A DNA stretch of 64,000 nucleotides from an uncultured Candidatus Saccharibacteria bacterium (GCA_964394925.1 CAYMZG010000002.1:20947-84946), one strand, 5' to 3'; positions 44,965 to 63,869 are shown, numbered from the stretch's first letter. Notes: generated by a model from the sequence alone, not told the origin. Translations and numbers: made by a program.

Positions 44965-47814
44965 ATGCACACAGTTAGTCGGTCCACAATACATCGTCGT
45001 ACATTTGCTTGCTTGCTCCTATTAGTCGTGGTTTGTTCTTCACTCTTCCCTAGGACCGGCTACACAGCGGCTACCTCACCTTGGCTAACCCCAGATCCAA
45101 CCCTAACAAAATTAGGAACAATTGATAGTAATGCCCCTCTAACAGCAGACATTGTTGGCAACCAAGATTGCCAACCCGCCGAAATTATCACCCGCCCCGA
45201 GCGCACCATCCCACCCCAAAGCAAACAAAGTCACGATAGTTGCCTTGTAGACACTGGCTTTGGCGCCCTGTCGGCAAGTGGTTATTTGCAACGGCAAGGC
45301 AGTGATGCTTTTGGCTATCTACGATCATCGGTTGGCAATCAGGCTATTGTTGGCATTCCGCGCACCAACAATGCCCTGGCAACACTAGCTTCTTCTACTC
45401 ATGGTACCTATGTCGGCTTCTATGACAACCTGCGTAGTCTTGTTTCTAGCACTACATTTAGTGATATGGTCACGCACACAATGCCGAATAACCCCTCGGC
45501 CGCTCTAAGCGACCACACCGGCAACAAACTGGGTGTTGAGTTATCGTCGTTAAGTTTTTCGAGCGAAGGTGACTGGGCGGTTGTCGAAGCGCCGGGGGTT
45601 GCCATGCTTCGCATAAACACTGCGTCCCATTTGGTACTCCCTTTTTCTGAAGCACCATTGCTCGACAACACTGGACTAGCCTATCGTACGGCTATAAATG
45701 CCGACGGAAGATATGCAATTGTCATCTCTAAAACGCGTTCGCTCATGAAACTGTATGATCTATCAACATGTGCAGCAATTCCCGACACTATAGCTGGCCC
45801 TGTAAGTTGTACAGCCGTCGATCTGCTGCCATTCATCAAGACCAAGATCACCAACTATACGAGTGTCGCAAGCGTTCGATTTCGCGGCGACTACACCCTT
45901 GAGCTATACATAAATACATCAGCAGCCACCATTGAACACGTCCTTATTACCGCTTCAGGGCAATCCGCTGCTCGCTTTGAATACTTGGCACTGGGGGATT
46001 CGTTTGCCTCGGGCGAGGGTGCCTACCAATATAAATCAGCAACCGATACAACCGCCAATGGTTGCCATCTATCCCTGCGCTCATATCCCTATTTGATCGC
46101 CAAACAACTGAGCCTAGACCAGACGGAATCAGTGGCATGTTCTGGCGCCACCACAAACGACCTTATCAATGGTGTGGCCGACTATCGCTTATATCATTCA
46201 CAGGCCAAAGGTAAGGAATCGGAAGCCTTTGACGAGGCAATCTTGCGTGACTTTTTGCCTGGGTATCGTGCTCAAAAGCTATTTGCTAATAGGTATCGCC
46301 CGCGGGTATTAACGGTCATGATTGGCGGTAATGATGTGGGCTTTTCAGATATCCTGCAACGTTGTCTTGGACCCGACACTTGTTACAGCCACTACGAGGA
46401 TCGTCTTGAGTTGTTAAATGAGGTGAGTGCACAGTTTAATTCGTTGGCGGGTACCTTTTCTGAAATAAAACATGCCGCGCCAGATTCTGAGCGTATTTAT
46501 GTGCTTGCCTATCCCCAGATTGCAGATGCATTTGGAAACTGCGCGCTTAATGTTCACCTAAATTATGATGAACTTGTTTTGGCGGGCACATTGGTAAGTC
46601 ATTTGAATAGCATCATCAAAGGCGCTGCTGAACATGCTGGAGTCACCTTCCTTAACACAGAGGATGCTTTGCATGGTCATCGCTTGTGCGAGACAACCGC
46701 GAACAGTATTGCGGTCAACGGACTAACTATTGGTAACGATATTTTGAACCTCCCGTACGCTCATGGTCCGATCGCGAAGGAAAGTTATCACCCAAATAGC
46801 CTTGGTCATGAACTTATGAAAAGTAATATATTGTCGCTCGCGAGTAATTTTTCGGTCTTAAACAAAGCTCCAAACCCCTCAATTAAAGCCAAGCAACCCG
46901 ACACAACAAGCGATGCGCTGAAAGTTCCCAAGTCAAATCGAGCGATTAGAAAAGTCATTCACCAAAAAAGCAATAACCCAGCGCCAGCCAAGAAGAAGAC
47001 AAAACGGATTGCGACAACCAAAGGCGTAGCTAGCATCTTCAGATCAGGTAAACAGCCACGTGTTTTATTGGATGGTCAAGGAGAACCAATTGGAACAGTC
47101 ACCTCAAACCCCGATGATTCGATAACGGTTGAGTTCACCCCTACAGACGAAACCCCTGATGGCCCCCATACCGTAGACATAGTTGGCGAGAACACTAGTG
47201 GCGAGCCGATTGCCGTCACCGAAACGGTTGTGGTTGGTGATTCCCAGGGGCCGTGCGGAGCTTTTGCGCCCAGCAATACCGATGTCGATCACGATGGCAT
47301 CGATGACGCCTGCGACCCATTAATTGGCACGGGTAGTATGGCTTCGTCGGATCAACTGGTTGTTGTGAACACCGGGGGCACGGGTGGTACAGGGACCACA
47401 GTAACTACAGGAGCCCCGGGAACCGCAGAATCAAGCATTCCTACTACACAAACACCGACCACGAGCCTCGTTACCACAACCGATAGCGTAGCCACACCGA
47501 GCACTCCAAATTTGATCATCCAAGGTTCACGGACCATAGCCATCCCAATTAATCCAACAGCCTTAACGGTTAGCAAGCCCAAGAATAGCACCGTTGCACA
47601 AGTCACACAGCCAGCTACTAACGGGCTCGTGAAGGGTCGGCAGACCACAGCCAACAGTCACAATACATCCAGGCCAGGAATCACACCACCCGCCTCGGCA
47701 TATAAAAACCCACCAAAGCTTGATGTATTGAAGCCGTGCAGTCTGTTTTTGCTTATAACTATTTGTTTGGTTGTGATGTTCGTAATCTATAAACGAAGAA
47801 AGGACCGCCGATGA
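44965..47814 (+). CDS. Cell-surface SGNH/GDSL-family hydrolase (949 aa) with signal peptide, Thr-rich stalk and C-terminal TM anchor
   Basis: Signal peptide 'LLLLVVVCSSLFP'; SGNH block I 'YLALGDSFASGEGA', later 'MIGGNDVG' and 'SYHPNSLGH'; 'DVDHDGIDDACDP' Ca-binding-like motif; C-terminal 'LFLLITICLVVMFVIYKRRKDRR'. Confidence 0.6.
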   Translation: MHTVSRSTIHRRTFACLLLLVVVCSSLFPRTGYTAATSPWLTPDPTLTKLGTIDSNAPLTADIVGNQDCQPAEIITRPERTIPPQSKQSHDSCLVDTGFGALSASGYLQRQGSDAFGYLRSSVGNQAIVGIPRTNNALATLASSTHGTYVGFYDNLRSLVSSTTFSDMVTHTMPNNPSAALSDHTGNKLGVELSSLSFSSEGDWAVVEAPGVAMLRINTASHLVLPFSEAPLLDNTGLAYRTAINADGRYAIVISKTRSLMKLYDLSTCAAIPDTIAGPVSCTAVDLLPFIKTKITNYTSVASVRFRGDYTLELYINTSAATIEHVLITASGQSAARFEYLALGDSFASGEGAYQYKSATDTTANGCHLSLRSYPYLIAKQLSLDQTESVACSGATTNDLINGVADYRLYHSQAKGKESEAFDEAILRDFLPGYRAQKLFANRYRPRVLTVMIGGNDVGFSDILQRCLGPDTCYSHYEDRLELLNEVSAQFNSLAGTFSEIKHAAPDSERIYVLAYPQIADAFGNCALNVHLNYDELVLAGTLVSHLNSIIKGAAEHAGVTFLNTEDALHGHRLCETTANSIAVNGLTIGNDILNLPYAHGPIAKESYHPNSLGHELMKSNILSLASNFSVLNKAPNPSIKAKQPDTTSDALKVPKSNRAIRKVIHQKSNNPAPAKKKTKRIATTKGVASIFRSGKQPRVLLDGQGEPIGTVTSNPDDSITVEFTPTDETPDGPHTVDIVGENTSGEPIAVTETVVVGDSQGPCGAFAPSNTDVDHDGIDDACDPLIGTGSMASSDQLVVVNTGGTGGTGTTVTTGAPGTAESSIPTTQTPTTSLVTTTDSVATPSTPNLIIQGSRTIAIPINPTALTVSKPKNSTVAQVTQPATNGLVKGRQTTANSHNTSRPGITPPASAYKNPPKLDVLKPCSLFLLITICLVVMFVIYKRRKDRR

Positions 47815-50687: not shown

Positions 50688-50996
50688 AGACCATTATTAT
50701 ACATAGATTTGCCATTTATCCCAAATTATTATTTGTGTTAGCCATTTGCACGTTTGTATGGCACTGTCTACCCCTACCCCGCTATTGAGTGTTTTTGACA
50801 ATATTTATTCACGATTTCGTGGTAGTTTTCCCCACTTCCTTTTTTATTATCCACAGATTAACAGATAGAAATATTGGGTGTGTATAACTCTGACCTGTTG
50901 GGCAAAAATAACCTCCTTCAAGCAAGGTCATCTGTAAAATTGTGGAAAACTCATGTAGAGTTAGGTATAGTATTGATCAAATAAATGGAGTGAGGG
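50688..50996. promoter_or_regulatory. Candidate chromosomal replication origin (oriC): DnaA-box cluster and AT-rich region between rpmH and dnaA
   Basis: Perfect TTATCCACA at 50847-50855; one-mismatch boxes TGTGTATAA (50879-50887, minus orientation) and TGTGGAAAA (50941-50949); weaker TTATCCCAA near 50717; AT-rich flanks; canonical rpmH | dnaA position. Confidence 0.6.
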
Positions 50997-52370: not shown

Positions 52371-52620
52371 GCTGCACGTAACGTGTGTACAACCTGTGGT
52401 TAGTGCGTGGCAAAGCCTGTCTACAACCACCGCTACTTTGCCACATGTAGAATTTACAAACGCTGAGCTGGGTAAAAACCCTGCATTTATAACCACTCAA
52501 ACAACAGACTTTCCGACCACTTGTTCACAGCTAATTTTGTCAAATAACAGCGTGGAGTTGGTGGTTTTCCCCATTATCCCCAGGCTTAATAATGAATATA
52601 GCAAAGGAGAATAACTTATT

Positions 52621-53712
52621 ATGAAGTTACAAGTCACCCAGGAAAATCTCCACAAGGCTTTGCAGAGCGTTGGTCGTGTTGCTACAAGTCGTGGCACGTT
52701 GCCTATTCTGTCGAATATTCTCCTGAAGACTGTCGGCAACCGCCTGAGCATTGCCGCCACCAACCTAGACATCGCCATTACGCACTACATTGGTTCGAAA
52801 GTAAACGACGAGGGTGCGATCACCGTGCCAGCTCGCCTCATGGTAGATTTTGTTGCTAGCCTGCCAAGTGGCACCATCACCCTAAATCTTGACGACACCA
52901 AGCTGAAGATCACCACCGACCAATACGAATCAGTCATTAACGGCGTGAGTGCTGAAGAATACCCCGTTATGCCAGCTATTGCTGACGGTGTTACGTGGAA
53001 GGTGCCATCAAACGTGTTGCGTGGTGGCCTGCAACAGGTGCTTATGGCTGCCTCGACCGATGAAAGTCGCCCAGTTTTAACGGGAGTATATGTACATACT
53101 CACGAGGGTAAACTCTACCTTGTGGCTACTGATAGCTACCGCCTAGCCGAGAAGATGCTCATGCCAAGTAAGCAAGACATCAAGCTACTTATTCCAGCCA
53201 GCGCCCTACAAGATCTACTGCGCATTTTGGGCGATACCGAAGATGAAGTTACTATTACACACGATGAACAACAGGTGTTATTCCGTGTTGGCGATGTTGA
53301 GCTCGTCACGCGCCTCATTGAGGGTAACTTCCCTGACTACCGAAAGCTCATTCCGCAAAACTTTGCACACAGTGCCGACCTCAAAAAGGGTGAATTTGCC
53401 AACATCACCAAGGTTTCTGCTTTGTTTGCGCGCGAAAGTGCCGGCAGCGTAACGCTGCATCTCGACGAAGAAAAACAGCAAGTAAGCATCCGCTCAATTG
53501 CCTCACAACTCGGTGAAAACACCGCAAGTGCACCAGCGGCAATTACAGGCGAAGGCGTTATTACCCTCAATTCACGCTACATTCTTGATGCCCTGCATGC
53601 TATGAACGACGAAGGTGTGCGCATCGCCTTTAATGGTAAGCTTGAGGCTTGTGTGTTGAGTGCCCCGAAGCGCCCTGACTATACGCATGTGATCATGCCA
53701 CTCAAGAGCTAG
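52621..53712 (+). CDS. dnaN: DNA polymerase III beta sliding clamp
   Basis: 363 aa; 'MKLQVTQENLHKALQSVGRVATSRGTLPILSNILL' N-terminus; three-domain length; dnaA-dnaN-recF order. Confidence 0.9.
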   Translation: MKLQVTQENLHKALQSVGRVATSRGTLPILSNILLKTVGNRLSIAATNLDIAITHYIGSKVNDEGAITVPARLMVDFVASLPSGTITLNLDDTKLKITTDQYESVINGVSAEEYPVMPAIADGVTWKVPSNVLRGGLQQVLMAASTDESRPVLTGVYVHTHEGKLYLVATDSYRLAEKMLMPSKQDIKLLIPASALQDLLRILGDTEDEVTITHDEQQVLFRVGDVELVTRLIEGNFPDYRKLIPQNFAHSADLKKGEFANITKVSALFARESAGSVTLHLDEEKQQVSIRSIASQLGENTASAPAAITGEGVITLNSRYILDALHAMNDEGVRIAFNGKLEACVLSAPKRPDYTHVIMPLKS

Positions 53713-53737: not shown

Positions 53738-54787
53738 ATGATAGCCAAGCTGCGCCTGCAAAACTTTCGCTCATATTCCGACAAAACATTTGAGTTTGTT
53801 GATGGTGTAAACATTATCGTTGGGCCTAATGCTAGTGGTAAAACAAACCTTCTTGAAGGTGTGCTGATGATCTGTCGGGGCGGCACCTTTCGTGGCTCTG
53901 ACGACGAAGTGATTGCCCATGGCGAGGCTTGGGCTCGACTCGACGCTTTAGTGAACAAGCGGCCGCACACTGTAAAAATTCAACTGCAAAATGGTAGAAC
54001 GACCAAAGAGTATGTCTTTGACGGCAGTACCTATAAACACTTCTCAAGCACTATAAGCGTGCCGGTGGTGCTATTCGAGCCCAGCCACCTACAACTTCTC
54101 ACCGACTCCCCAGACCTGCGACGTAACTTTTTAGATGACATGATCGAGCAAGTAACACTTGGTTATGCTTCATTGCGGCGTAACTACAAGCGTGCCCTTG
54201 CCCAACGAAACAGTCTACTCAAACAGGCCTTCACGCAAGACCAGATATTTATATGGAATGTGCGCCTTAGCGAGTTTGGCGGCCAAATTGCCGACGAGCG
54301 GCGACGTTTCCTGGAGACACACCAAACAATTCTTCAAGAAGTGTACGATCAACTGGCCGATGAGCCAACCGAAGCACGTACACACTACGTGACTAAACTA
54401 AATACCGACAACTACTCCTCATCAATGCTAAAAGCCCTCGAAGCAAACTTGCGCATTGACCAAGAACGTGGCTACACAACGGTCGGACCACACCGAGATG
54501 ACCTTGGCCTAGAACTTCGCGGCTACAACCTGTCTGAAGCCGCCTCACGCGGCGAAACGCGCACTATGTTACTGGCGCTCAAGCTACTTGAAGCACGGGC
54601 CATAGAACAGGCCCAGCGAACCAAACCAATCCTGCTGCTAGATGATGTGTTTAGTGAGCTCGATGCCACCAGGCGGCACGCCCTCACAACATTCATCCAG
54701 GATCACCAAACGTTTATTACCACCACCGATGCCGATATCTTTGACGGCAAACTCCCTGCCAAGTCACAAACAATACGCTTTAACTAA
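53738..54787 (+). CDS. recF: DNA replication and repair protein RecF
   Basis: 349 aa; Walker A 'GPNASGKTNLLE', C-terminal 'ILLLDDVFSELD' Walker B/D-loop. Confidence 0.85.
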   Translation: MIAKLRLQNFRSYSDKTFEFVDGVNIIVGPNASGKTNLLEGVLMICRGGTFRGSDDEVIAHGEAWARLDALVNKRPHTVKIQLQNGRTTKEYVFDGSTYKHFSSTISVPVVLFEPSHLQLLTDSPDLRRNFLDDMIEQVTLGYASLRRNYKRALAQRNSLLKQAFTQDQIFIWNVRLSEFGGQIADERRRFLETHQTILQEVYDQLADEPTEARTHYVTKLNTDNYSSSMLKALEANLRIDQERGYTTVGPHRDDLGLELRGYNLSEAASRGETRTMLLALKLLEARAIEQAQRTKPILLLDDVFSELDATRRHALTTFIQDHQTFITTTDADIFDGKLPAKSQTIRFN

Positions 54788-54801: not shown

Positions 54802-56325
54802 CTAATCTGCGTACGGATTTACGATTACAAACCTAGTCGTATCAATGCCGCTTGCCTTTACGTCTGCCATCACAGCATCATTAGCTTTGCGCTTCTTCTC
54901 GGGCGAATAGCCATACGATTTTGAGGCTGGTACATACTCTAGTTCCCCGAGATTCGGTGATATAAACAGATACTTACCATAGGCCGATACATCTGAGATA
55001 TTCGAGGAATGCAACAGAACATCAACTTGCTTATCAATGGGTGAATCAACAGCAGATTCGCCGAGTTCCAGCATTACCCCAGTGCCCTTTGTATTGGTGA
55101 GGTTCAAAAGTGCCCCATTGCCAGAGGGTGATATGCTATTTAACTGATAATTGCCGAGCCGATAAGCTATGTAGCCATATCCATTTGTGGTATTCACATA
55201 GATAACGTCGCGACCTTTCAAAAATAACAGGCCGTCTTTTCCTGACCTGCCCATAATGCTTACATCAGGTACCTGGGCCACCTTCTTTAGTTTGCCGCCC
55301 GATGCGTCGTAAATAGTAAGGCCGGATGTTTCGTCGATGGTGCATATGCTCTGCTGTCCACAGAGCGAGGTTGCAAAATATGTTCCACTTAATGAAAAGT
55401 GCTTGGCTTTTCCATTCGAATACTTCACCAATTCAGTCTTCGGGTTCGGGGTTGATCCATCAGTATCACCAACACTGTTTGAATAGGTCGCCAATAGGCT
55501 TTTTCCATCAGCATCAAAACGAATCGGAATATCCACACCTTTAACCGAAGGCAGTTCTAATTTCTTAGGGCTTGCTTTCGGGCCCGAGAAATACTGCACA
55601 TCCCTAAATGTTAGGTCATACATAACAAAACCGTCTTCATAAGGAACCGCTGTGTATGTTTTGTCGTCTTTCAGGCCCGAAAGATATGTTGCACTCCCCG
55701 TTTCGGTAATGATGCCTGCTGCTTGATTCAGACTTAGGGCAGAGTGTGCGCTTGGCAGGCCTATCGACTCCAACTGCTTGCGCACATATAATGGGCCACC
55801 CTTTGTATTAATAATCCCCTCTACTTGTCTCGTAAAGCCATTACTGGGGCTTCTTGCAGATGTCGGGAGTTGTTGGCTAGCAGGAACATGAACTTTGATT
55901 GTGTCTGCTGTGCCACCACACGTGTGGCTAACAAGCACCGCATTAATTATTTCGGCACATGATGCTGGATTGTTGCCCACAAAACTTCGCGAACGTTCTG
56001 CCTCAAGCGCAATTTTTGGGGTGGTTTTAGACAAGAAGTGGCCCACCACAACACTTGTCCAGTAACTCTTATCACCATCAACAGCAAGCACCGTGTATCT
56101 ACCACTCCTCAGGATTTTGGTCCCCGGTTTCGTGGTTTGTTGTAAGCCATTGCTGTTACCTGATACATAGTACGTCACATCTGTATTATTTTGTGCGGAG
56201 TCTAGTTGAAGGCGCCCACGTCCATATAGCCACCAAATGACCATGGCCATAACTATGAATAACAAGCCAAAAACAATAAACCGACGATAACGTGACATAA
56301 GACTAAGTATTACATTATCTTGCAT
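54802..56325 (-). CDS. Hypothetical membrane-anchored extracytoplasmic protein (last gene of the VirB4-containing operon)
   Basis: 507 aa; N-terminal TM 'FIVFGLLFIVMAMVIWWLY', then a large Ser/Thr/Gly-rich predicted beta-rich ectodomain; start overlaps the upstream stop (ATGA at 56325-56328). Confidence 0.4.
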   Translation of the reverse strand: MQDNVILSLMSRYRRFIVFGLLFIVMAMVIWWLYGRGRLQLDSAQNNTDVTYYVSGNSNGLQQTTKPGTKILRSGRYTVLAVDGDKSYWTSVVVGHFLSKTTPKIALEAERSRSFVGNNPASCAEIINAVLVSHTCGGTADTIKVHVPASQQLPTSARSPSNGFTRQVEGIINTKGGPLYVRKQLESIGLPSAHSALSLNQAAGIITETGSATYLSGLKDDKTYTAVPYEDGFVMYDLTFRDVQYFSGPKASPKKLELPSVKGVDIPIRFDADGKSLLATYSNSVGDTDGSTPNPKTELVKYSNGKAKHFSLSGTYFATSLCGQQSICTIDETSGLTIYDASGGKLKKVAQVPDVSIMGRSGKDGLLFLKGRDVIYVNTTNGYGYIAYRLGNYQLNSISPSGNGALLNLTNTKGTGVMLELGESAVDSPIDKQVDVLLHSSNISDVSAYGKYLFISPNLGELEYVPASKSYGYSPEKKRKANDAVMADVKASGIDTTRFVIVNPYAD

Positions 56326-56327
56326 AA

Positions 56328-58592
56328 CTAACCACCACAGCCATTTGGATTACTCACACCCGGAGGTACGGTGAGGCCATTCTTAAAGGGGTCAACATTA
56401 GCGTGGTCCCAGCCACTATAATCACCCGGGAAGGTGTTGAAGTGAAGGTGTGGCCCGGTTGATATTCCGAGACTGCCCTGCTCACCAATCTGTTGACCTT
56501 GTTTAACTTGGTCGCCTTCATGGACCATCATAGAGTTCATATGACCATAGCTTGTCCCAAACTTAATAGATTCGTGTTTTATAACAACAAAGTTTGGTCC
56601 ATATCCTCCTGCCGGCCCCGCCTTTACCACCACGCCATCGGCTGCCGCAAAAATCGGTGTTTCACTGGGCGGGCCACTGTTTGAAATATCAATTCCTGGG
56701 TGTCCACCCGGACCACCAAAGCACTGAGTAATATAGCTCTTTTCTATTTTTTCGGGCCATGAGAACGTGCCGCCTGTTGGGCCCTGCTGACCACCCTGAC
56801 TACAGCCTCCACCTCCGCCACCAGATCCATTGCCGGCAACCGGCATGCCTGATCCGAACTTGGCCACCGCGGCATGGGCGGCATCAACGCGAGTTTTATG
56901 AAATTCCTGAGGCGGTTTGGTTTCTGGTGTCGGGCCTTTGTTGTTTACTATAATTCCGCGGTGTGTCTCGTAGTAGATCTCGATAAGTTGTGTAGCCTTA
57001 TCAATTATATCTTCCCCTGGGTTTGGTGTTTCAGCGTCTATCTTTTGTATTCGTTCCAATAATGGTTTGTATTTATTCTGCAGCTCCCACATTATATAAT
57101 CAAGCTGCAGGCCTAGATCAGACACGGGCTTGCCTTGATCAGATGCCATTTTGTTTAAGGGGTCTTGTCTGTCATGGAATGACCATTGGATAAGTCCATA
57201 CCCTCGCCCGTCAATCGTGGCGTCTCCTGTTGTGCCAGGTTCAAGCGCTCGTGGGTTAAGACCCGATTCCTCTGTCATGTTTCCAATAAAACCCCCCGCC
57301 ACTGCTGGCGCAAAGCCTTTGCCAATGAAGAAGTTGAATATCTTCTCGGCATTCTCACCGCCAACTAACGTGGTGCTGCTAGTCCCGCCGCTACCACCAC
57401 AAGTACAGCCACCCCCATTTCCGCTTTTTGTTGCGCTATCATTTCCCATATTCGCTTTTGCAGCCGTTATTTTTGCCGAAGAAGCTTCAATTTGAGTTTT
57501 GAGGGCTGGATCAGCGTTAGCTGCCTGCTCAACTTTATCAATAATTGCCTTTAATTGATCTTCGCCTGTGAAGAGCGCGATATCAGCCCCGCTTTTTATT
57601 GCTTCTAAGGCACTGTCGGCTAGCGCGCCAGGTCCTCCCAAGCCACCCGCCGCCAAGTCATCTGTAATAATAATGCCATTAAATTGATACTCATTTTTTA
57701 GTAAGTCGTAAGTTGCCTTACTCTTACTGGCTGGTACACCGTTTGTGAGCCCAGGAACACTATAATTTCCTACCATCACCCAAGCCCCAGTGGTGTTGTT
57801 GGCTAAAAGCGTTTGATACGGTTTAAGATCGAGCCCTTTTAGTTCATCTAGGCTTGGTGATGAGCCAGCAACTTGGTCGGAATTCACCGTTGTTCGGCCA
57901 ATGCCCGGAAAGTGCTTGTATACTGGCGTAATGCCACCGGCCTTTAGCCCTTCAGCGTACGCTCCGGCTTTTTCGGCAATAACATCAGGGTTGTTAGAAA
58001 ACGCTCGTTGTATGTTACCAATCGCCGGACTATTTGGGCTGTCAATGTCTACTACCGGGGCGGCATCGAACGTACCACCAATCTCTTTAATTTTTGTGGC
58101 CGTGTCGGTGCCAAGCTTCTTTACCTGATCCACCGACATACCTCCCATTGCCTTGGCGCTCGGGGTGCCCAACTTCAGTCGGTCAACTTGACCACCCTCC
58201 TGGTCGAGTCCCACAAACGGTGTAGGACTAAACTTTGATTTAGCAGCATTAATCTTTGCCCCATCAAAAAAGGGAGTATTCACAAAAAAGCCACCAACAT
58301 GGTAGGTGCTAACAGCATCATTAGCTTGTGCTTCGCTTGTGACGAGCGGAATCATCATCTGACCAATTTGGTCTCGCAGACCAGTGAGCGCGGCTGGTAC
58401 ATTACTATTCTTTTTACCCACATCACAGGCCACAACATCTTGATACATGGTATGGTCGCCATAAATTGCCTTACTCTCGATATTGGCGTCTGCATAGGCG
58501 ATTGTACTGACTGTCGGCAGAAGAATGATTAAAATTGAAATCAGAAGAGTGCGAGCCACCGTGCGAAGCGCTACCAATAGCCTGCGGATCAT
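56328..58592 (-). CDS. Secreted three-domain cell-wall hydrolase: GH3 beta-N-acetylhexosaminidase (NagZ-like) + phage-tail-lysozyme-like domain + M23 (LytM) metallopeptidase
   Basis: 754 aa; signal/TM 'LLISILIILLPTVSTIAYA'; GH3 blocks 'GLDQEGGQVDRL', 'KHFPGIG', 'NGIIITDDLAAGG'; Gly-rich linkers; 'FIGNMTEESGLNP...GRGYGLIQWS' lysozyme-like block; M23 'HPGIDIS' (HxxxD) and 'GPHLHF' (HxH). Confidence 0.7.
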   Translation of the reverse strand: MIRRLLVALRTVARTLLISILIILLPTVSTIAYADANIESKAIYGDHTMYQDVVACDVGKKNSNVPAALTGLRDQIGQMMIPLVTSEAQANDAVSTYHVGGFFVNTPFFDGAKINAAKSKFSPTPFVGLDQEGGQVDRLKLGTPSAKAMGGMSVDQVKKLGTDTATKIKEIGGTFDAAPVVDIDSPNSPAIGNIQRAFSNNPDVIAEKAGAYAEGLKAGGITPVYKHFPGIGRTTVNSDQVAGSSPSLDELKGLDLKPYQTLLANNTTGAWVMVGNYSVPGLTNGVPASKSKATYDLLKNEYQFNGIIITDDLAAGGLGGPGALADSALEAIKSGADIALFTGEDQLKAIIDKVEQAANADPALKTQIEASSAKITAAKANMGNDSATKSGNGGGCTCGGSGGTSSTTLVGGENAEKIFNFFIGKGFAPAVAGGFIGNMTEESGLNPRALEPGTTGDATIDGRGYGLIQWSFHDRQDPLNKMASDQGKPVSDLGLQLDYIMWELQNKYKPLLERIQKIDAETPNPGEDIIDKATQLIEIYYETHRGIIVNNKGPTPETKPPQEFHKTRVDAAHAAVAKFGSGMPVAGNGSGGGGGGCSQGGQQGPTGGTFSWPEKIEKSYITQCFGGPGGHPGIDISNSGPPSETPIFAAADGVVVKAGPAGGYGPNFVVIKHESIKFGTSYGHMNSMMVHEGDQVKQGQQIGEQGSLGISTGPHLHFNTFPGDYSGWDHANVDPFKNGLTVPPGVSNPNGCGG

Positions 58593-61500
58593 TTCGACGG
58601 CGCCTTTCCAATAGTCTCCACCGCCTTGTCCACAAGTGGACCATAATTTGTTGGGTGTATGCCATCCGGTGTGTATGGTATTGGCGGTGCAATACCAGCG
58701 TAATCTATGACCGTAACGCTGTGGCTACTAGCAAACTTTGCCAATAGATCAGTCTTGCCTTTGCCATGATCCCCGAGCGAATTGAGGTAGTAGTTCACCC
58801 AGAATATCTTGGCGTTAGGGGCATTTGCTTTAACCTTGTCGTACGTTGTTTGCAGGCTTGAGTTAAAGGCGTCATCCCCAGCACCTAGGTCATTGGTTCC
58901 GAGTGCTACTACGACCGCTCCGGCATTCGACATGATGGCTTTGTCGGCGTCCATTTGCTGGATGCCACCAGGGCTTGGTGGTTCTCCGGTCATGTGCCGT
59001 GACACCAACCCATTACTCGTAACACTCCAGCCATTGGCTTGCAGTTTGGTATCTAGGCCCGCAGCCTTGGCGCCCACCGTATAGGAGTCGCCCACCCAGT
59101 AAAGATTGGCATTACTTGCCGATGAACCATTGGTTCCGGTGTTGGCTGTGCTGCCACTGCCACCCTCGGGTGAATAGGCATTGTCACCGGTATAGCCGTA
59201 CAGACCACCAATGTTACCCATCACGCGACTGTCGAAGATTGCACAGTTGTAAATTTTGTCTGCGGCAGCGGGGTCCATCTCTTTCTCCTTGATGGTCCCG
59301 TACACTTTTTCCCAGAATTTGTCGCCATTGCGCATAACTTCCCAGTCGAGCGACTTAGGATCCAGACCTATATCACTCACATTACTACTTTTCGATAAAT
59401 AATCTGGGTCAAGTGGATCCAGACCTTGGCATTGTGGAGGTATGTCGTATTTGTCGACACCGGCCCAGTCTGATATATCTGAGGCTTTTCCTGGATCTGC
59501 CGCAAAGGCTCTGCCACTTAACATATTTCCAAAAACCGTAGGCAGGCTGCTGAGGCTTGTAAATAGGCTACTGATCTGCTGGGTTATTGGCTTGTTGCTC
59601 ACAGCAAAAAGAGTGCTTGCCGCAAAAGAATCGGGATTATCGAGTGACGCATAACGATCGAATAACGATTCGCTTGCTTTCTGCTCGTTATCATAATTAG
59701 TGGCTAACTTATTTGTATAATCAAGCGATGCCTTAGTTGATGCTGCACCCCCTGATTGACGAGTTGACGCCTCTGCTTGAGCTGCACCCCCCGCGACAAG
59801 CAAGTTTCCAATTCCTGGAGACGAGCCATCGAACATTGGTCCACCACCAAGCACACCGACCAACTTCATCATAAGTGCGCCTATTTGTGATTGAACATTC
59901 TTTCCGAATTCGGTCTCAGCCGCGAAACCTACCAATGGCTCAGTAACCTTGCCAATCAAATCCGGTATAAAGTTCGAAACCCATTCAACGCCAGGTATTT
60001 TTTTGACTCCACGTACACCACCAGCAACTACGCCTATAAAAGGCTTAAAATTTTTCTCATATACATTTGACAGCATCGCCGCATTACCACCGTTTCCTGG
60101 ATTTTGATCATCACAATACCAGGAAAAATCACTAAATGAGCGTTTTGATGGCTCTTTTTCGCAATATGCTTTTTTGGCCACTTTATCTGCATCGCTAGTG
60201 CCAGCACTTCTGCCTGTTGCCTGCAACCACCCTTCGCTATTGCCAATATTTTGCGTTGTCGCAAAAAAGTCTTGTAATTGATCCCCAACCAATTCACCCG
60301 ATTTCATTTGATCACTTGCAATTGAATAGGTAGCAAACAAACCAATTAGCTGGGCTCGTTTCGCATTTTTTACCATCATAGATAGCTTGCTAGTTTCCCC
60401 ATTGCCAAATAGATCATCTACCCTTTCCATCCATTTTGCGATCGTCCATATTTTATCCGGGCTGGGTATTGGTGCGGCACTCTGTATTACCTTACCAATC
60501 TCTTGACCAGTCACCTTGGCAATAAGTGTGTAAATGAGGCGCTTGGATATGCTGGACCCCTCAAGTATCTTAGCGGTTTCCTTGCTCAGGCCCTTGTCCG
60601 CTTCGCCTTCCACGGCATTTGTTAATAGCTTCTGAGTCTCGTCCTTAAGATCACCCGACACCTCGTTCTCAGCTGCCTTTTGTGCGGCCTTTGCCTGCTT
60701 GCCTTCATCGTCTTTTGGCTCTTTCTCTGGCAAATCGTCGCCACCACTCCCATTCAGCCCATTCTGGGGGTCGGCCACATCACTCGATCTAGCGCAGCTA
60801 CCATTTGAAAAGATACATTTAAGTAAATTTGCAGTATTTGGATTACGCCCAAAGAAAATATCTATCATCTTGGCATATAGCTGGTCTTTACGAGCTTGTA
60901 TACCTTTCGCGAGTTTATCTCGTGTTTTCTCGAATAATCGCCATGACTTAATGCCCGCAACACTCTCAACATCTTTGCGTACATGTCGTCGCTTGAATAC
61001 TCTGTACCATGGGACCTCAGAGTCGACAACCTCTTTTACGGCTTTGCGCGCTGCTTTGTGTGTGTCGAACTTATCGACCACAAACATTCTTTCCAAATCT
61101 TTGTCGGGTATTGCTGATAGTTTCTGTGCAATATTGTTTGCACTGATCGGCCCGCCGTTATCGGCATCTAATAAGTACTTTCCAACCAGATCGGGATGTA
61201 TCTTTTCTAGTGCGGTTATACGCGCGGTGGATATGTTTCCCTGGTTATCAACTATGCTAACAAATGATATGCCCTGCTTGCCAAAAACACTTTCCTCAAA
61301 CTTATTTTTACGGAGGGTTGCATACCAATCCTTAAGCGGATTCTTCCCGTCGCCTACTTTATCACCCTTAAAAAATAATGTTTCCCCATCGGTTTTTCCC
61401 TCATATTCAGCAACGCGCATTTTTATATATGCTTTTGTTAGGCTCTTGTTTCGGGTATCGAGGGACGCCTTAAGTCGCTTGCTAGTATGAGCTTCTGTAT

Positions 61501-61909
61501 TCTTAAAGAAGTGATCCATTTGGAAGGTGTGCAAGAAGTTGAACATGAAAACACCCATGATAACCGCAACCAATCCAGCGCCGCCCATGGCACCAAGCGC
61601 ACCCTTACGTTTAAGGAGACTCTTGCCCGAACCACCCACAGTAGCTTTTCCTTTGTAAAAGCTATCTTTCTCACGGGCATCAGCGAACATGTTCCCAAAA
61701 CGCGACTCGAGCGCGTCGCCACCACCAGTATTCCCGGCGTCAGGTTCGGCTTCTTTTTCGCTCAACTGTTCTGGCGTTAGACTGGAGGCTTCATCTGCAC
61801 GGGCAGATGCTTCAATGCTGGCTTCTTCATCGGGGTCTATACCGGTGATGCTTCGAAGATCGTCATCACTGACGCGCTGGTCCTCATCATCATAAACGGC
61901 GTTAGGCAT
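58589..61909 (-). CDS. 1106-aa single-pass membrane protein with acidic cytoplasmic N-terminus, large ectodomain and C-terminal SGNH/GDSL hydrolase domain
   Basis: TM 'GALGAMGGAGLVAVIMGVFMFNFL' at about aa 105-130; C-terminal SGNH blocks 'LYWVGDSYTVG', 'VVALGTNDLG', 'DGIHPT'; ATG overlaps the stop of the downstream hydrolase gene. Confidence 0.6.
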   Translation of the reverse strand: MPNAVYDDEDQRVSDDDLRSITGIDPDEEASIEASARADEASSLTPEQLSEKEAEPDAGNTGGGDALESRFGNMFADAREKDSFYKGKATVGGSGKSLLKRKGALGAMGGAGLVAVIMGVFMFNFLHTFQMDHFFKNTEAHTSKRLKASLDTRNKSLTKAYIKMRVAEYEGKTDGETLFFKGDKVGDGKNPLKDWYATLRKNKFEESVFGKQGISFVSIVDNQGNISTARITALEKIHPDLVGKYLLDADNGGPISANNIAQKLSAIPDKDLERMFVVDKFDTHKAARKAVKEVVDSEVPWYRVFKRRHVRKDVESVAGIKSWRLFEKTRDKLAKGIQARKDQLYAKMIDIFFGRNPNTANLLKCIFSNGSCARSSDVADPQNGLNGSGGDDLPEKEPKDDEGKQAKAAQKAAENEVSGDLKDETQKLLTNAVEGEADKGLSKETAKILEGSSISKRLIYTLIAKVTGQEIGKVIQSAAPIPSPDKIWTIAKWMERVDDLFGNGETSKLSMMVKNAKRAQLIGLFATYSIASDQMKSGELVGDQLQDFFATTQNIGNSEGWLQATGRSAGTSDADKVAKKAYCEKEPSKRSFSDFSWYCDDQNPGNGGNAAMLSNVYEKNFKPFIGVVAGGVRGVKKIPGVEWVSNFIPDLIGKVTEPLVGFAAETEFGKNVQSQIGALMMKLVGVLGGGPMFDGSSPGIGNLLVAGGAAQAEASTRQSGGAASTKASLDYTNKLATNYDNEQKASESLFDRYASLDNPDSFAASTLFAVSNKPITQQISSLFTSLSSLPTVFGNMLSGRAFAADPGKASDISDWAGVDKYDIPPQCQGLDPLDPDYLSKSSNVSDIGLDPKSLDWEVMRNGDKFWEKVYGTIKEKEMDPAAADKIYNCAIFDSRVMGNIGGLYGYTGDNAYSPEGGSGSTANTGTNGSSASNANLYWVGDSYTVGAKAAGLDTKLQANGWSVTSNGLVSRHMTGEPPSPGGIQQMDADKAIMSNAGAVVVALGTNDLGAGDDAFNSSLQTTYDKVKANAPNAKIFWVNYYLNSLGDHGKGKTDLLAKFASSHSVTVIDYAGIAPPIPYTPDGIHPTNYGPLVDKAVETIGKAPSK

Positions 61910-61943: not shown

Positions 61944-63869
61944 TTATACCCCCGGGTATAGTCGGTTGCCTAAGTCAATTGTCCCTTCTGGTTGGTCAAT
62001 TTCTCCCGCCTGCCCTGGCATAGGCTGTTGTGCTGGCGAAGAACTAATCAGTCCCGTCTCTGTTGCACTGGCGGTTATTTGAATATGAACATGGTTCTGT
62101 CCTGCAAAGAATAAACCTTGTCCGACTGGGAATTGGCTTAGACGCTTGCGTTCTTCACTAGTAAGCTTAAAGACATCCGCTAGAACATCAACAGCCGAAG
62201 GCGACTGCTTAAGCAACAGTTGCATAGAGGCGTTAGCTACAATAGCTCGTCCCATTCTCGAGCCCATAAAGTCTTCAACGTCTTGCGAAATAGTCGTAAT
62301 ACCAAGGTTATACTTACGGGCGCGCTTAGCGAGGCTAAACAAAAAATTCGCCGAGTCTTCGTATTGCATGAGTTGCCAGGCTTCATCAACAATAAGAATG
62401 CGTCGCTTCTGGTCGGTCTTGGTCTTGTTCCATATGTAGTTTAGAACAATGTACATTGCCACTGGTCGAAGTTCGTCCTCAAGGTCACGCACGTTAAACA
62501 CAACCATCGGGTTGTCGATGTCTATATTTGACTGCTGTGAAAAGATACCTGCAAAGGTACCGGTCGTGTACTTACGTAAGCGCTGGGCGAGTTGGGGGCC
62601 TGTTCCGCCCATATGCAGGAGGGTGTCATATAGGTCGGCAATGGTTGGTGGTATGCCGGTATGCGTGAGGGGGTCATTTGTAATGCCAGCTTTGGCATAG
62701 GTCTCAATCAGGGCAGCATCTAGGTCTGATTCTTCAACTGGCGTCAGCGCAGGGGCGGTAACACCGTTACCACCGCCTTGCATTTGTGCCTGAGCGCCGC
62801 CCATCATGAGGCGAAGTAAACCATGCAAAGTAACAAGATTGCTACGGAGGGCGTTATCTGCCTCTTCAGAATCAACAACTTTTGGAAGATCAAAGGGATT
62901 AATTCGAGTGTTTGAATTGAGGCTTAGGCGTACATAGGCGCCACCAACAGCATCACACATCCGTTGATACTCATTCTCTGGGTCAATAATAAAGATTTCA
63001 GTTCCAAACATCATGCTGCGTAGCGCTTCAAGCTTCACGGCAAATGACTTACCAGCACCAGACTTGGCAAACACTGTTGAGTTGCCGTTCTCAAGTGTGA
63101 AACGGTCAAAAATTACCAAGCCCGAGTTATGCATGTTAATGCCGTACAAAATACCATTATCTTGGCTCAAATCGGCCGAGGTAAACGGAAAGCTTGTACT
63201 AAGTGCGCCAGTGCTCATATTGCGTCGAATTTGCAGTTGATCGGTAAACTGCGGCACCGTTCCGTTTAGCCCCTGCTCCTGTTGGGATGTAGCGGGCTTT
63301 GAGTAAACCAACTGTTGACCAAGGATTGACTCAACCTTATGTGAAACGAACTCTAACTCCTCCAAACTGCTGCCATATAAGGTAAAGTACAGCCCAAAGC
63401 GGAAGAAGCGCTCTTCCCCAACCTGTAGCTTGTCACGCATTTCCTCGGCGTCGATAATGGCCGCTTGTTTGCCCGGGTCACGTACTCGGCCTTTTTCGGC
63501 ATCGATCTGAACACCTGCCTCGAGCTGACTCACCTTCTTACGGAGATTCTCGAGCACTACCTGACTCTCAACCGGATAGATGTACATGGAGAGATCAATC
63601 ACCTCATCGAGGTTAACCATACCACTTAACCAACCAGTATAAAGTTGGCGTGGGTAACCGTACACGTAGTACGTGCGGGCAAAGCGCGTACCGAGTTGGA
63701 AATACGTTGCCTTATATTCAATAGAACTTGGCGCAATGAAGTCGCGTAGAGCAGTAATGCCCTTACGAAACGCCTCATCAACCTCTTTCTGCTCGCGCAT
63801 GCGCTGGGCCTGGGCGGTGGCAACGGGATCAACAATATTTTGAGAGCCTTTGTTTTTGCCGAGTGCCAT
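61944..63869 (-). CDS. virB4: VirB4/TrbE/CagE-family type IV secretion ATPase
   Basis: 641 aa; Walker A 'VFAKSGAGKSFAVK', Walker B 'RILIVDEAWQLM', VirB4-typical length and hydrophilic N-terminal domain; ATG overlaps the upstream stop (TAATG). Confidence 0.75.
   Translation of the reverse strand: MALGKNKGSQNIVDPVATAQAQRMREQKEVDEAFRKGITALRDFIAPSSIEYKATYFQLGTRFARTYYVYGYPRQLYTGWLSGMVNLDEVIDLSMYIYPVESQVVLENLRKKVSQLEAGVQIDAEKGRVRDPGKQAAIIDAEEMRDKLQVGEERFFRFGLYFTLYGSSLEELEFVSHKVESILGQQLVYSKPATSQQEQGLNGTVPQFTDQLQIRRNMSTGALSTSFPFTSADLSQDNGILYGINMHNSGLVIFDRFTLENGNSTVFAKSGAGKSFAVKLEALRSMMFGTEIFIIDPENEYQRMCDAVGGAYVRLSLNSNTRINPFDLPKVVDSEEADNALRSNLVTLHGLLRLMMGGAQAQMQGGGNGVTAPALTPVEESDLDAALIETYAKAGITNDPLTHTGIPPTIADLYDTLLHMGGTGPQLAQRLRKYTTGTFAGIFSQQSNIDIDNPMVVFNVRDLEDELRPVAMYIVLNYIWNKTKTDQKRRILIVDEAWQLMQYEDSANFLFSLAKRARKYNLGITTISQDVEDFMGSRMGRAIVANASMQLLLKQSPSAVDVLADVFKLTSEERKRLSQFPVGQGLFFAGQNHVHIQITASATETGLISSSPAQQPMPGQAGEIDQPEGTIDLGNRLYPGV

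Follow-up and report, generated by a model that had tools for sequence, protein, structure and literature searches.

A three-domain hydrolase with an altered NagZ-type dyad as a probable peptidoglycan-hydrolase subunit of a Saccharibacteria-type type IV secretion system

Why does a single gene of a Saccharibacteria genome carry three different domains for cutting peptidoglycan, and which process does its product serve? The question arises from a 64,000-nucleotide stretch of DNA from an uncultured Candidatus Saccharibacteria bacterium (GCA_964394925.1, CAYMZG010000002.1:20947-84946), referred to here as the window. A preliminary description of this DNA had taken the product of one open reading frame (ORF) for a lone secreted lytic toxin, in which a GH3 glycosidase, a phage-tail lysozyme and an M23 peptidase were fused. 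From the domains, the gene context and the relatives of this protein, we conclude that it is probably the peptidoglycan-hydrolase subunit, in the role of VirB1 or PrgK, of a chromosomal, monoderm-type (MPF-FATA-like) type IV secretion system (T4SS) of the Saccharibacteria type.

Pfam placed three domains on the protein, each far over its curated gathering score: Glyco_hydro_3 (PF00933; residues 72-375, E 4e-46, profile positions 2-313 of 316), Phage_lysozyme2 (PF18013; residues 413-518, E 7e-24, 85 bits against a cut-off of 28.2) and Peptidase_M23 (PF01551; residues 630-720, E 1e-24, 86.5 bits against a cut-off of 28.7). The three domains of the preliminary description were thus recovered, including the middle block, which had been named by resemblance and is now assigned to Phage_lysozyme2 by profile. 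The motif strings quoted in that description are all present. Along the chain, we located DQEGG (130-134), KHFPG (226-230), NSDQ (237-240) and ITDDL (309-313), followed in the C-terminal modules by TEESG (440-444), GYGLIQW (464-470), HPGID (631-635) and HLHF (715-718). Pfam found no SLT or CHAP domain in the hydrolase. Against the NCBIfam equivalogs (NagZ, ShyA/C, MepM, NlpD, DipM, SpoIIQ and others), it scored far under the cut-offs.

Hydropathy analysis gave residues ~4-38 as the sole strongly hydrophobic segment, followed by AYA/DA. Because of this N-terminus, the protein is predicted to be exported or N-terminally anchored, in line with the export proposed earlier. An AlphaFold2 model made with 20 homologues as input (mean predicted local distance difference test [pLDDT], 76.6) consisted of a helix at residues 2-23, a disordered spacer (25-68), a GH3 barrel (70-385; pLDDT ~90), a helical lysozyme-like domain (407-580) and a beta-rich M23 domain (602-754). 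The two Gly-rich interdomain linkers (~385-406 and 581-601) were modeled with low confidence.

The hydrolase gene is the third of four co-oriented, tightly packed genes, with junctions of -4, +2 and +34 nucleotides. Its ATG shares bases with the stop codon of the upstream gene, which encodes a 1106-residue protein (ATGA), and a Shine-Dalgarno-like GGAAAGG lies ~13 nucleotides 5' of the ATG. The first operon gene inside the window encodes a VirB4-like ATPase, and all three products after VirB4 bear one N-terminal transmembrane or signal segment. We scanned the window for DnaA boxes with one mismatch allowed. Three of the 22 matches cluster within ~100 bp directly 5' of dnaA, the sole perfect box of the window, TTATCCACA, being part of this cluster. 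A further match lies at 52574, between dnaA and dnaN. The cluster marks an origin of replication (oriC), from which the T4SS operon ends ~4 kb away.

Related loci share this arrangement. The common order is TrbL_3 (VirB6-like), PrgI (VirB3-like), TraC-like, VirB4, a protein of ~1000-1290 residues, and the hydrolase. Six loci (L007, L009, L010, L011, L012 and L013) have this order with a GH3+lysozyme2 hydrolase that is 30-47% identical to the query in the family alignment. The same slot after VirB4 is held in L006 by a shorter lysozyme2+Amidase_2 protein, and L002, whose contig starts there and shows only the part downstream of VirB4, agrees with the shared order. Wherever the contig reaches beyond the hydrolase, a protein of ~460-510 residues (several small ORFs in L011) and then recF follow, with dnaN and dnaA right beyond recF in five loci. 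Named homologues are labeled Candidatus Saccharibacteria or Saccharimonadales, and three of the related loci come from metagenome-assembled genomes so labeled. L012 (DATNGP010000187.1, GCA_035605245.1; it carries the homologue P0017) is labeled "Verrucomicrobiae bacterium" yet has the full Saccharibacteria-type T4SS order, with a 967-residue protein; this contig is probably mis-binned. By its gene order, the hydrolase gene belongs to a conserved T4SS operon adjoining oriC, a setting that does not fit a lone secreted toxin.

Published systems hold two counterparts. The T4SS of Patescibacteria forms a lineage of its own, with kinship to MPF-FATA, a conjugation class of monoderms; it often adjoins dnaA and usually lacks a relaxase (Quinonero-Coronel et al. 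2025). The literature names peptidase and lysozyme homologues directly downstream of virB4 as likely VirB1 substitutes in these systems, and the 2025 survey says that other glycosidases may take the VirB1 role in Saccharimonadia. In Southlakia epibionticum ML1, transposon sequencing (Tn-seq) found the SEML1_0006-0019 cluster essential for epibiotic growth (Wang et al. 2023, Cell, PMC10633639). The supplementary tables of that study call SEML1_0004-0007 ES (essential) at the two later Tn-seq calls, and SEML1_0008 apparently has the same pattern. In the published annotation (PMC10633639), SEML1_0008 is VirB4; SEML1_0007 has 1113 residues and a C-terminal DD-peptidase fold; SEML1_0006 has 643 residues, with a PF01832 glucosaminidase, a PF18013 phage-tail lysozyme and a cysteine proteinase fold; SEML1_0005 and SEML1_0004 are exported Ig/PEGA-like proteins, and recF, dnaN and dnaA follow.

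SEML1_0006 therefore sits in the slot of the window hydrolase, in a series that runs from virB4 through an ~1100-residue protein with a C-terminal wall hydrolase to the hydrolase, exported proteins and recF-dnaN-dnaA. Compared by published annotation, both proteins have a central PF18013 domain and the same logic of glucosaminidase, muramidase and peptidase. They differ in the N-terminal module (PF01832, a GH73-type endo-glucosaminidase with a lysozyme-like fold, versus a GH3 exo-glucosaminidase), in the C-terminal module (cysteine proteinase versus M23) and in length (643 versus 754 residues). The 1106-residue protein is the positional counterpart of SEML1_0007. In the place of the 507-residue protein downstream of the window hydrolase, S. 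epibionticum has SEML1_0005 and SEML1_0004, both of them smaller.

The best-studied monoderm T4SS hydrolase is PrgK of the Enterococcus faecalis plasmid pCF10, which combines LytM, gp13-like muramidase (MUR) and CHAP domains (Sun et al. 2024, mBio, PMC11323569). Only its muramidase is active; LytM and CHAP are regulatory and down-regulate the muramidase, and PrgK binds PrgL (PMC11323569). PrgK and the window protein are both T4SS encoded and three-domained, with a gp13-like MUR that has a catalytic Glu and with an M23/LytM domain; PrgK is membrane anchored. However, the order in PrgK is LytM-MUR-CHAP without GH3, and its LytM is degenerate and metal free, whereas the window M23 domain has all five residues. 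PrgK also serves conjugation; the Patescibacteria system, in contrast, has no relaxase and is required for growth as an epibiont. Given this operon slot and three-domain build, we regard the window protein as the positional and architectural counterpart of both SEML1_0006 and PrgK. A T4SS-associated multidomain peptidoglycan hydrolase is in itself of an already known kind.

The two C-terminal modules can be compared with solved structures. For the lysozyme domain, the N-terminal domain of phi29 gp13 is the only solved sequence relative (query residues 414-508; E 3.6e-11 with the full-length query and ~1e-7 with the domain alone). GNMTEESGLNP aligns with GNMQSESTINP of gp13, which places Glu442 on gp13 Glu45, and at least 90% of the sequences in alignment A1 conserve E442. 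PrgK has the corresponding Glu573, and its gp13-like fold is a muramidase with a conserved catalytic Glu (PMC11323569). By analogy, the window domain is a likely gp13/PrgK-MUR-type muramidase, a class whose hydrolytic chemistry is known only for PrgK. In the M23 domain, H631, D635, H684, H715 and H717 align one to one with LytM H210, D214, H260, H291 and H293. The metallopeptidase site is thus complete, as its motifs had been described.

The tail-tip wall-degrading enzyme gp13 (3csq/3csr) has the same order of lysozyme-like domain, Gly-rich linker and LytM-M23 domain as the C-terminal modules here. It is, however, a virion protein without a GH3 domain or signal peptide, and it lacks the additional helices of ~70 residues (519-580) that extend the window domain. 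PHROG matches (tail tape-measure, "minor head protein" and endolysin) cover the lysozyme and M23 regions, and with the Pfam name "phage tail lysozyme" these could mean that the gene is a remnant of a prophage tail-associated lysin. This is exceedingly improbable. No phage genes surround the hydrolase, its neighbors have no PHROG matches, and the same slot by recF-dnaN-dnaA and virB4 is kept in distantly related genomes. Moreover, the G+C content is unremarkable, and PrgK shows that the gp13-like fold is native to monoderm T4SSs. We rejected a prophage origin on the PHROG-free neighbors and the synteny.

To return to the hydrolase as a T4SS subunit, its relatives show how widespread and how variable such proteins are. 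A word-indexed search gave ~20 clusters at 90% identity with GH3+PF18013, and HMMER, run exhaustively over 1.84 billion representatives at 50% identity, gave 275 proteins at E<=1e-30. We re-annotated 162 proteins (the top 150 of the HMMER scan and the first 23 of the word-indexed search) with three query segments. At least 86 protein clusters have GH3+lysozyme2 in that order, at least 21 of which add M23; other re-annotated relatives have lysozyme2+M23 without GH3. Pfam on samples found GH3+lysozyme2 joined to CHAP, Amidase_3 or a C39-like domain, as well as GDSL+GH3+lysozyme2+M23 and a permuted lysozyme2+GDSL+GH3+Amidase_3. The SGNH module ends the upstream protein in the window and in L007 and begins the hydrolase in P0005-P0013; where it is on the hydrolase, across the overlapping gene junction, the C-terminal part of the upstream protein is M23 or VanY/DD-peptidase, or is not recognizable as any module. 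From these architectures, the constant core is the gp13/PrgK-type muramidase, with variable modules around it, and the GH3+lysozyme2 hydrolases form a lineage-wide, highly modular family and not a one-off. The architecture called unusual in the preliminary description is therefore real but recurrent, and to that extent common in databases.

The same data bear on whether the protein could be a housekeeping autolysin or a peptidoglycan-recycling enzyme for the cell's own wall that is merely encoded near the T4SS. The characterized GH3 enzymes closest to this one, LpqI and YbbD/NagZ, serve recycling, a role in division is common among M23 and lysozyme-like enzymes, and there are weak NCBIfam matches to DipM, EnvC, NlpD, ShyA and MepM. 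Every one of these matches, however, is far under its equivalog cut-off. The overlapping start and stop codons and the strict virB4 synteny among proteins 30-65% identical argue for a functional link with the T4SS. In addition, accessory domains (GH73, GH3, M23, CHAP, Amidase_2/3 and C39-like) are swapped freely around a constant muramidase, as is typical of the wall-breaching enzymes of T4SSs and phages; this counts against housekeeping. We consider this explanation highly unlikely.

The remaining module, GH3, raises the question of whether it is an enzyme at all. Its closest solved relatives are all actinobacterial, namely, Mycobacterium tuberculosis LpqI (6gfv, E 2e-50) and the enzymes of Mycobacterium smegmatis (4yyf) and Corynebacterium glutamicum (5iob), and the module is 35-36% identical to these three. 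Foldseek gave template modeling (TM) scores of 0.84-0.87 with a root mean square deviation of ~2 A to 4yyf and 6gfv, and TM scores of 0.79-0.83 to 5iob. LpqI and Bacillus subtilis NagZ/YbbD are the best sequence and fold match. Like the window module, they have a single-domain GH3, KHFPG, the nucleophile Asp, the Arg/Asp sugar ligands and an extracytoplasmic site. LpqI, a recycling enzyme, is a lipoprotein located at the external membrane surface (PMC6572805). An extracytoplasmic NagZ-type GH3 is thus normal in monoderms, and export of this one is not the anomaly it had seemed. What differs is that LpqI stands alone, while the window GH3 shares its chain with two lytic domains and is encoded in a T4SS operon. 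Among the best unfused GH3 matches is a mycobacterial LpqI-like cluster, and the unfused relatives nearest to the module come from mycobacteria and corynebacteria.

All known NagZ enzymes use an Asp-x-His dyad (PMC6572805). In a phmmer alignment, the critical loop of the query, KHFPGIGRTTVNSDQ, pairs with KHFPGHGRGSGDSHN of LpqI without gaps, and the M. smegmatis and C. glutamicum enzymes likewise align gap free. The dyad position is occupied by Asn237-Ser-Asp239, so that the canonical G-H-G....D-S-H of LpqI and NagZ becomes G-I-G....N-S-D (I231, N237 and D239). The loss of the dyad noted in the preliminary description is therefore no alignment artefact. The sugar ligands are kept (the Lys226-His227 pair, Arg196, Asp130 and Asp182), and the nucleophile strand ITDDL (D311) matches fSDDLs of LpqI.

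We counted dyad states in the 86 proteins carrying GH3+lysozyme2. D130, E132, D182, R196, K226, H227, M273 and D311 are invariant in all 86. By contrast, position 239 varies (59 Asp, 26 His, 1 Tyr), as do position 237, with 50 Asn and 32 Asp, and position 231, where 29 proteins have His and 56 have Leu, Ile or Phe. These three positions change together, giving H..D-x-H in 24/86 and [L/I/F]..N-x-D in 47/86. In a neighbor-joining tree of the GH3 domain, which is approximate and was made without bootstrap, the T4SS-linked GH3s form a single clade. The I..NSD group, to which the window protein belongs, is nested inside DSH forms, and its sister is P0004, a DSH protein whose locus has the gene order of the window. 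Separate N-x-D origins fall in P0016/P0017, in P0053 and in a KHFPGLGRVTxN[TP]D clade. This last clade is large and holds PDB entry 5bu9 (Beutenbergia cavernae) together with proteins labeled Streptomyces or Pseudonocardiales.

Seven members of the 5bu9-containing clade (P0049, P0055, P0064, P0080, P0084, P0097 and P0119) are fused to a GH25 muramidase. Some of these fusions are labeled Pseudonocardiales or Jatrophihabitans, and 5bu9 itself belongs to the unfused part of the clade. The order was GH3 and then muramidase in all three of the GH25-fused members checked with Pfam. These actinobacterial-type proteins share with the window protein the coupled switch (His to Leu/Ile in G-x-G and Asp-x-His to Asn-x-Asp) and the module order, but they belong to a separate GH3 clade and their muramidase is GH25, not Phage_lysozyme2. 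As far as sequences can tell, they represent an independent GH3-to-muramidase fusion with the same His-to-Asp switch. No T4SS genes were found near a GH3-GH25 fusion on the one short contig examined (L014).

By these counts, Asn-x-Asp appears to be a conserved alternative state of the GH3 module and not decay. The full conservation of the other active-site residues, the recurrent and coupled switch, and the repeated partnership with a muramidase point to an active enzyme with a carboxylate acid/base in place of a dead binding module. Chemically, Asp is able to fill the acid/base position, and we infer that Asp239 acts directly as the general acid/base. The dyad His is reportedly tied to phosphorolysis, going by the title of a 2015 study by Macdonald and colleagues, and this link is disputed in the literature. 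Since the His is so linked, an enzyme with Asp would presumably be a plain hydrolase. The phosphorylase-like activity suggested in the preliminary description therefore points in the wrong direction.

Several observations weigh against this reading of the GH3 module and of the protein as a whole. The dyad that defines characterized NagZ enzymes is absent. We found no characterized N-x-D GH3 enzyme in the literature, and for 5bu9, the sole solved N-x-D example, no paper discussing it was found there. The non-muramidase domains of PrgK have no detectable activity, so intact motifs are no guarantee of three activities, and the role of the hydrolase is read here from sequence and gene context. The GH3 module could accordingly be catalytically dead and serve glycan binding or regulation, as LytM and CHAP do in PrgK. 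We hold this to be doubtful, though it deserves real weight. Nucleophile Asp311 and seven further active-site or core residues are invariant in 86/86, the replacement is specific and coupled ([L/I/F]231, N237 and D239 in 47/86) in a way that random decay is not, and the switch arose repeatedly, including in the actinobacterial GH3-GH25 clade with a solved structure. The binding module proposed in the preliminary description is for the same reasons unlikely, with nucleophile and sugar ligands invariant and Asn-x-Asp the conserved majority state.

With the GH3 module taken as active, we infer the following division of labor for the T4SS subunit. The hydrolase would be exported by its N-terminal signal or anchor and would work outside the membrane beside the T4SS channel. 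The muramidase core would hydrolyze the MurNAc-beta-1,4-GlcNAc bonds of glycan strands, and the M23 domain would cleave cross-bridges or stem peptides. GH3, as an LpqI/NagZ-type exo-beta-N-acetylglucosaminidase, would trim the non-reducing GlcNAc that the muramidase bares on strand ends and muropeptides; the non-reducing GlcNAc of muropeptides is the substrate of LpqI and NagZ (PMC6572805). The SGNH domain of the 1106-residue protein may be an O-acetyl-peptidoglycan esterase and may strip O-acetyl groups, which in general inhibit muramidases (PMC11323569). Jointly, these activities could open a local, controlled hole for the T4SS or a VirB2-like pilus. The wall so opened could be that of the epibiont, that of the actinobacterial host, or both.

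A different explanation is that the protein is a free secreted bacteriolytic weapon, or a T4SS effector, against a host or competitor and takes no part in machine assembly. Peptidoglycan-hydrolase effectors are known from the T4SSs of Xanthomonas and Stenotrophomonas. The window protein combines three potentially lytic activities with an export signal, and its lysozyme+M23 pair is that of phi29 gp13, which digests its target wall from outside. Saccharibacteria are parasitic epibionts whose T4SS, without recognizable coupling and relaxase proteins, may export proteins (PMC10633639). On the other hand, the gene has a fixed position inside the core operon at every locus examined, and the N-terminus is of the Sec type and not a T4SS C-terminal signal. 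There is also no adjacent immunity-like small gene, the next gene encoding the conserved, membrane-anchored 507-residue propeller protein. We therefore regard the weapon or effector as unlikely. It is compatible with a role in the machine, as an enzyme tethered to the machine could also attack the wall of the host.

A host-directed role of the T4SS hydrolase, perhaps in GlcNAc scavenging, is rather unlikely but live, because the lysozyme+M23 part matches the outside-attacking gp13, the nearest unfused GH3s are mycobacterial and corynebacterial, and the system is essential for epibiotic growth. A joint proposal is rather unlikely, too: N-x-D GH3s would be a repeatedly evolved subclass of strict hydrolases, as opposed to His-dependent enzymes that may have phosphorylase activity, selected upon fusion to a muramidase, and the T4SS-tethered form would strip GlcNAc from the actinobacterial host wall. 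If true, the T4SS locus would double as a wall-breaching and amino-sugar-harvesting device for an auxotrophic epibiont.

The Saccharibacteria T4SS is among the few machines shown to be essential for epibiotic life, and our results offer starting points for learning how these parasites breach a thick Gram-positive wall, be it their own or that of the host. The wall hydrolase is modular around a constant gp13/PrgK-type muramidase, and SGNH, M23, VanY and amidase modules shuffle between it and the upstream gene. A widespread form bears an LpqI-like GH3, the nearest unfused relatives of which come from Actinobacteria, the phylum of the known hosts of cultivated Saccharibacteria. We found no literature linking Saccharibacteria with NagZ, or with GH3 in a T4SS. 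A GH3 exo-glucosaminidase module in a T4SS hydrolase role and the conserved Asn-x-Asp replacement of the NagZ dyad both appear not to have been described. Same-locus orthologue pairs, with Asp-x-His in P0004 and Asn-x-Asp in the window protein, are a natural experiment on GH3 acid/base catalysis. They bear on why NagZ-type GH3 enzymes use His and on its tie to phosphorolysis.

Table 1. Coordinates of the hydrolase gene, its domains and the neighboring features in the window
Feature	Position	Strand	Basis
Three-domain peptidoglycan hydrolase ORF, 754 residues plus stop	56328..58592	-	ATG start, ORF call, Pfam and AlphaFold2
N-terminal signal peptide or membrane anchor, residues 1-35, MIRRLLVALRTVARTLLISILIILLPTVSTIAYA/DA	58488..58592	-	Hydropathy; AlphaFold2 helix 2-23
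GH3 N-terminal (beta/alpha)8 domain, NagZ/LpqI type, without GH3 C-terminal domain, residues 70-385	57438..58385	-	Pfam, LpqI match, Foldseek, pLDDT ~90
GH3 critical loop, residues 226-240, KHFPGIGRTTVNSDQ	57873..57917	-	Translation and alignments
Asp311 codon (ITDDL), predicted GH3 catalytic nucleophile	57660..57662	-	Invariant in 86/86 family members
Gly-rich linker 1, residues 386-406, C396-x-C398	57375..57437	-	pLDDT <50
Phage-tail-lysozyme domain (Phage_lysozyme2; phi29 gp13 N-domain/PrgK MUR type), residues 407-580	56853..57374	-	Pfam, gp13 alignment, AlphaFold2
Gly-rich linker 2, residues 581-601, Cys597	56790..56852	-	Alignment A1, AlphaFold2
M23/LytM metallopeptidase domain, residues 602-754	56331..56789	-	Pfam, motif and LytM alignment
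VirB4/TraC-like T4SS ATPase (TraG P-loop, AAA_10, DUF87), first operon gene inside the window	61944..63869	-	Profile matches
Upstream 1106-residue protein, one transmembrane helix (~103-131), large extracytoplasmic region, C-terminal SGNH/GDSL hydrolase	58589..61909	-	Pfam, hydropathy
SGNH/GDSL domain of the 1106-residue protein, residues 939-1090	58640..59095	-	GDS, GTND and DGIHP blocks intact
Downstream 507-residue protein, N-terminal transmembrane helix, beta-sandwich, WD40-like beta-propeller	54802..56325	-	AlphaFold2, position conserved in related loci
recF	53738..54787	+	Converging on the T4SS operon
dnaN	52621..53712	+	Converging on the T4SS operon
dnaA	50997..52370	+	Converging on the T4SS operon
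DnaA-box cluster	50847-50949		Box scan

The linkers of the hydrolase hold conserved cysteines. In 85/106 relatives, the lysozyme domain is preceded at a distance of 10-20 residues by a CxC or CC motif. It is followed by one Cys, C597, that does not vary in alignment A1. Another Cys (C56) precedes the GH3 module, and the M23-bearing members add a pair, C624 and a C-terminal GC (C752). These cysteines could be disulfide staples, redox controls or processing sites; PrgK dimerizes via Cys.

A PDB sequence search with the 1106-residue protein gave no match. For the 507-residue protein, there was no Pfam or PHROG family, and its AlphaFold2 model (pLDDT 83.8; predicted TM score, 0.81), which has four invariant cysteines, matched generic WD40 propellers only. 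It may be a T4SS accessory that contacts the wall or the host. Promoter and terminator scans gave site counts not above those of shuffled sequence.

Genes for YidC and Jag/KhpB lie on the other side of the dnaA region. Farther along, a second large exported protein of 949 residues (44965-47814, plus strand) has hydrophobic segments at both termini and a split GDSL/SGNH domain (342-617), which shows no sequence relationship to the SGNH domain of the 1106-residue protein. The region from 12000 to 44000 of the window is largely made up of envelope-polysaccharide genes (GT2 glycosyltransferases, UDP-glucose dehydrogenase, phosphoglucomutase/GlmM-like, Wzy_C O-antigen-ligase-like and DUF2142) and also encodes an 811-residue protein with an Ig-like domain.

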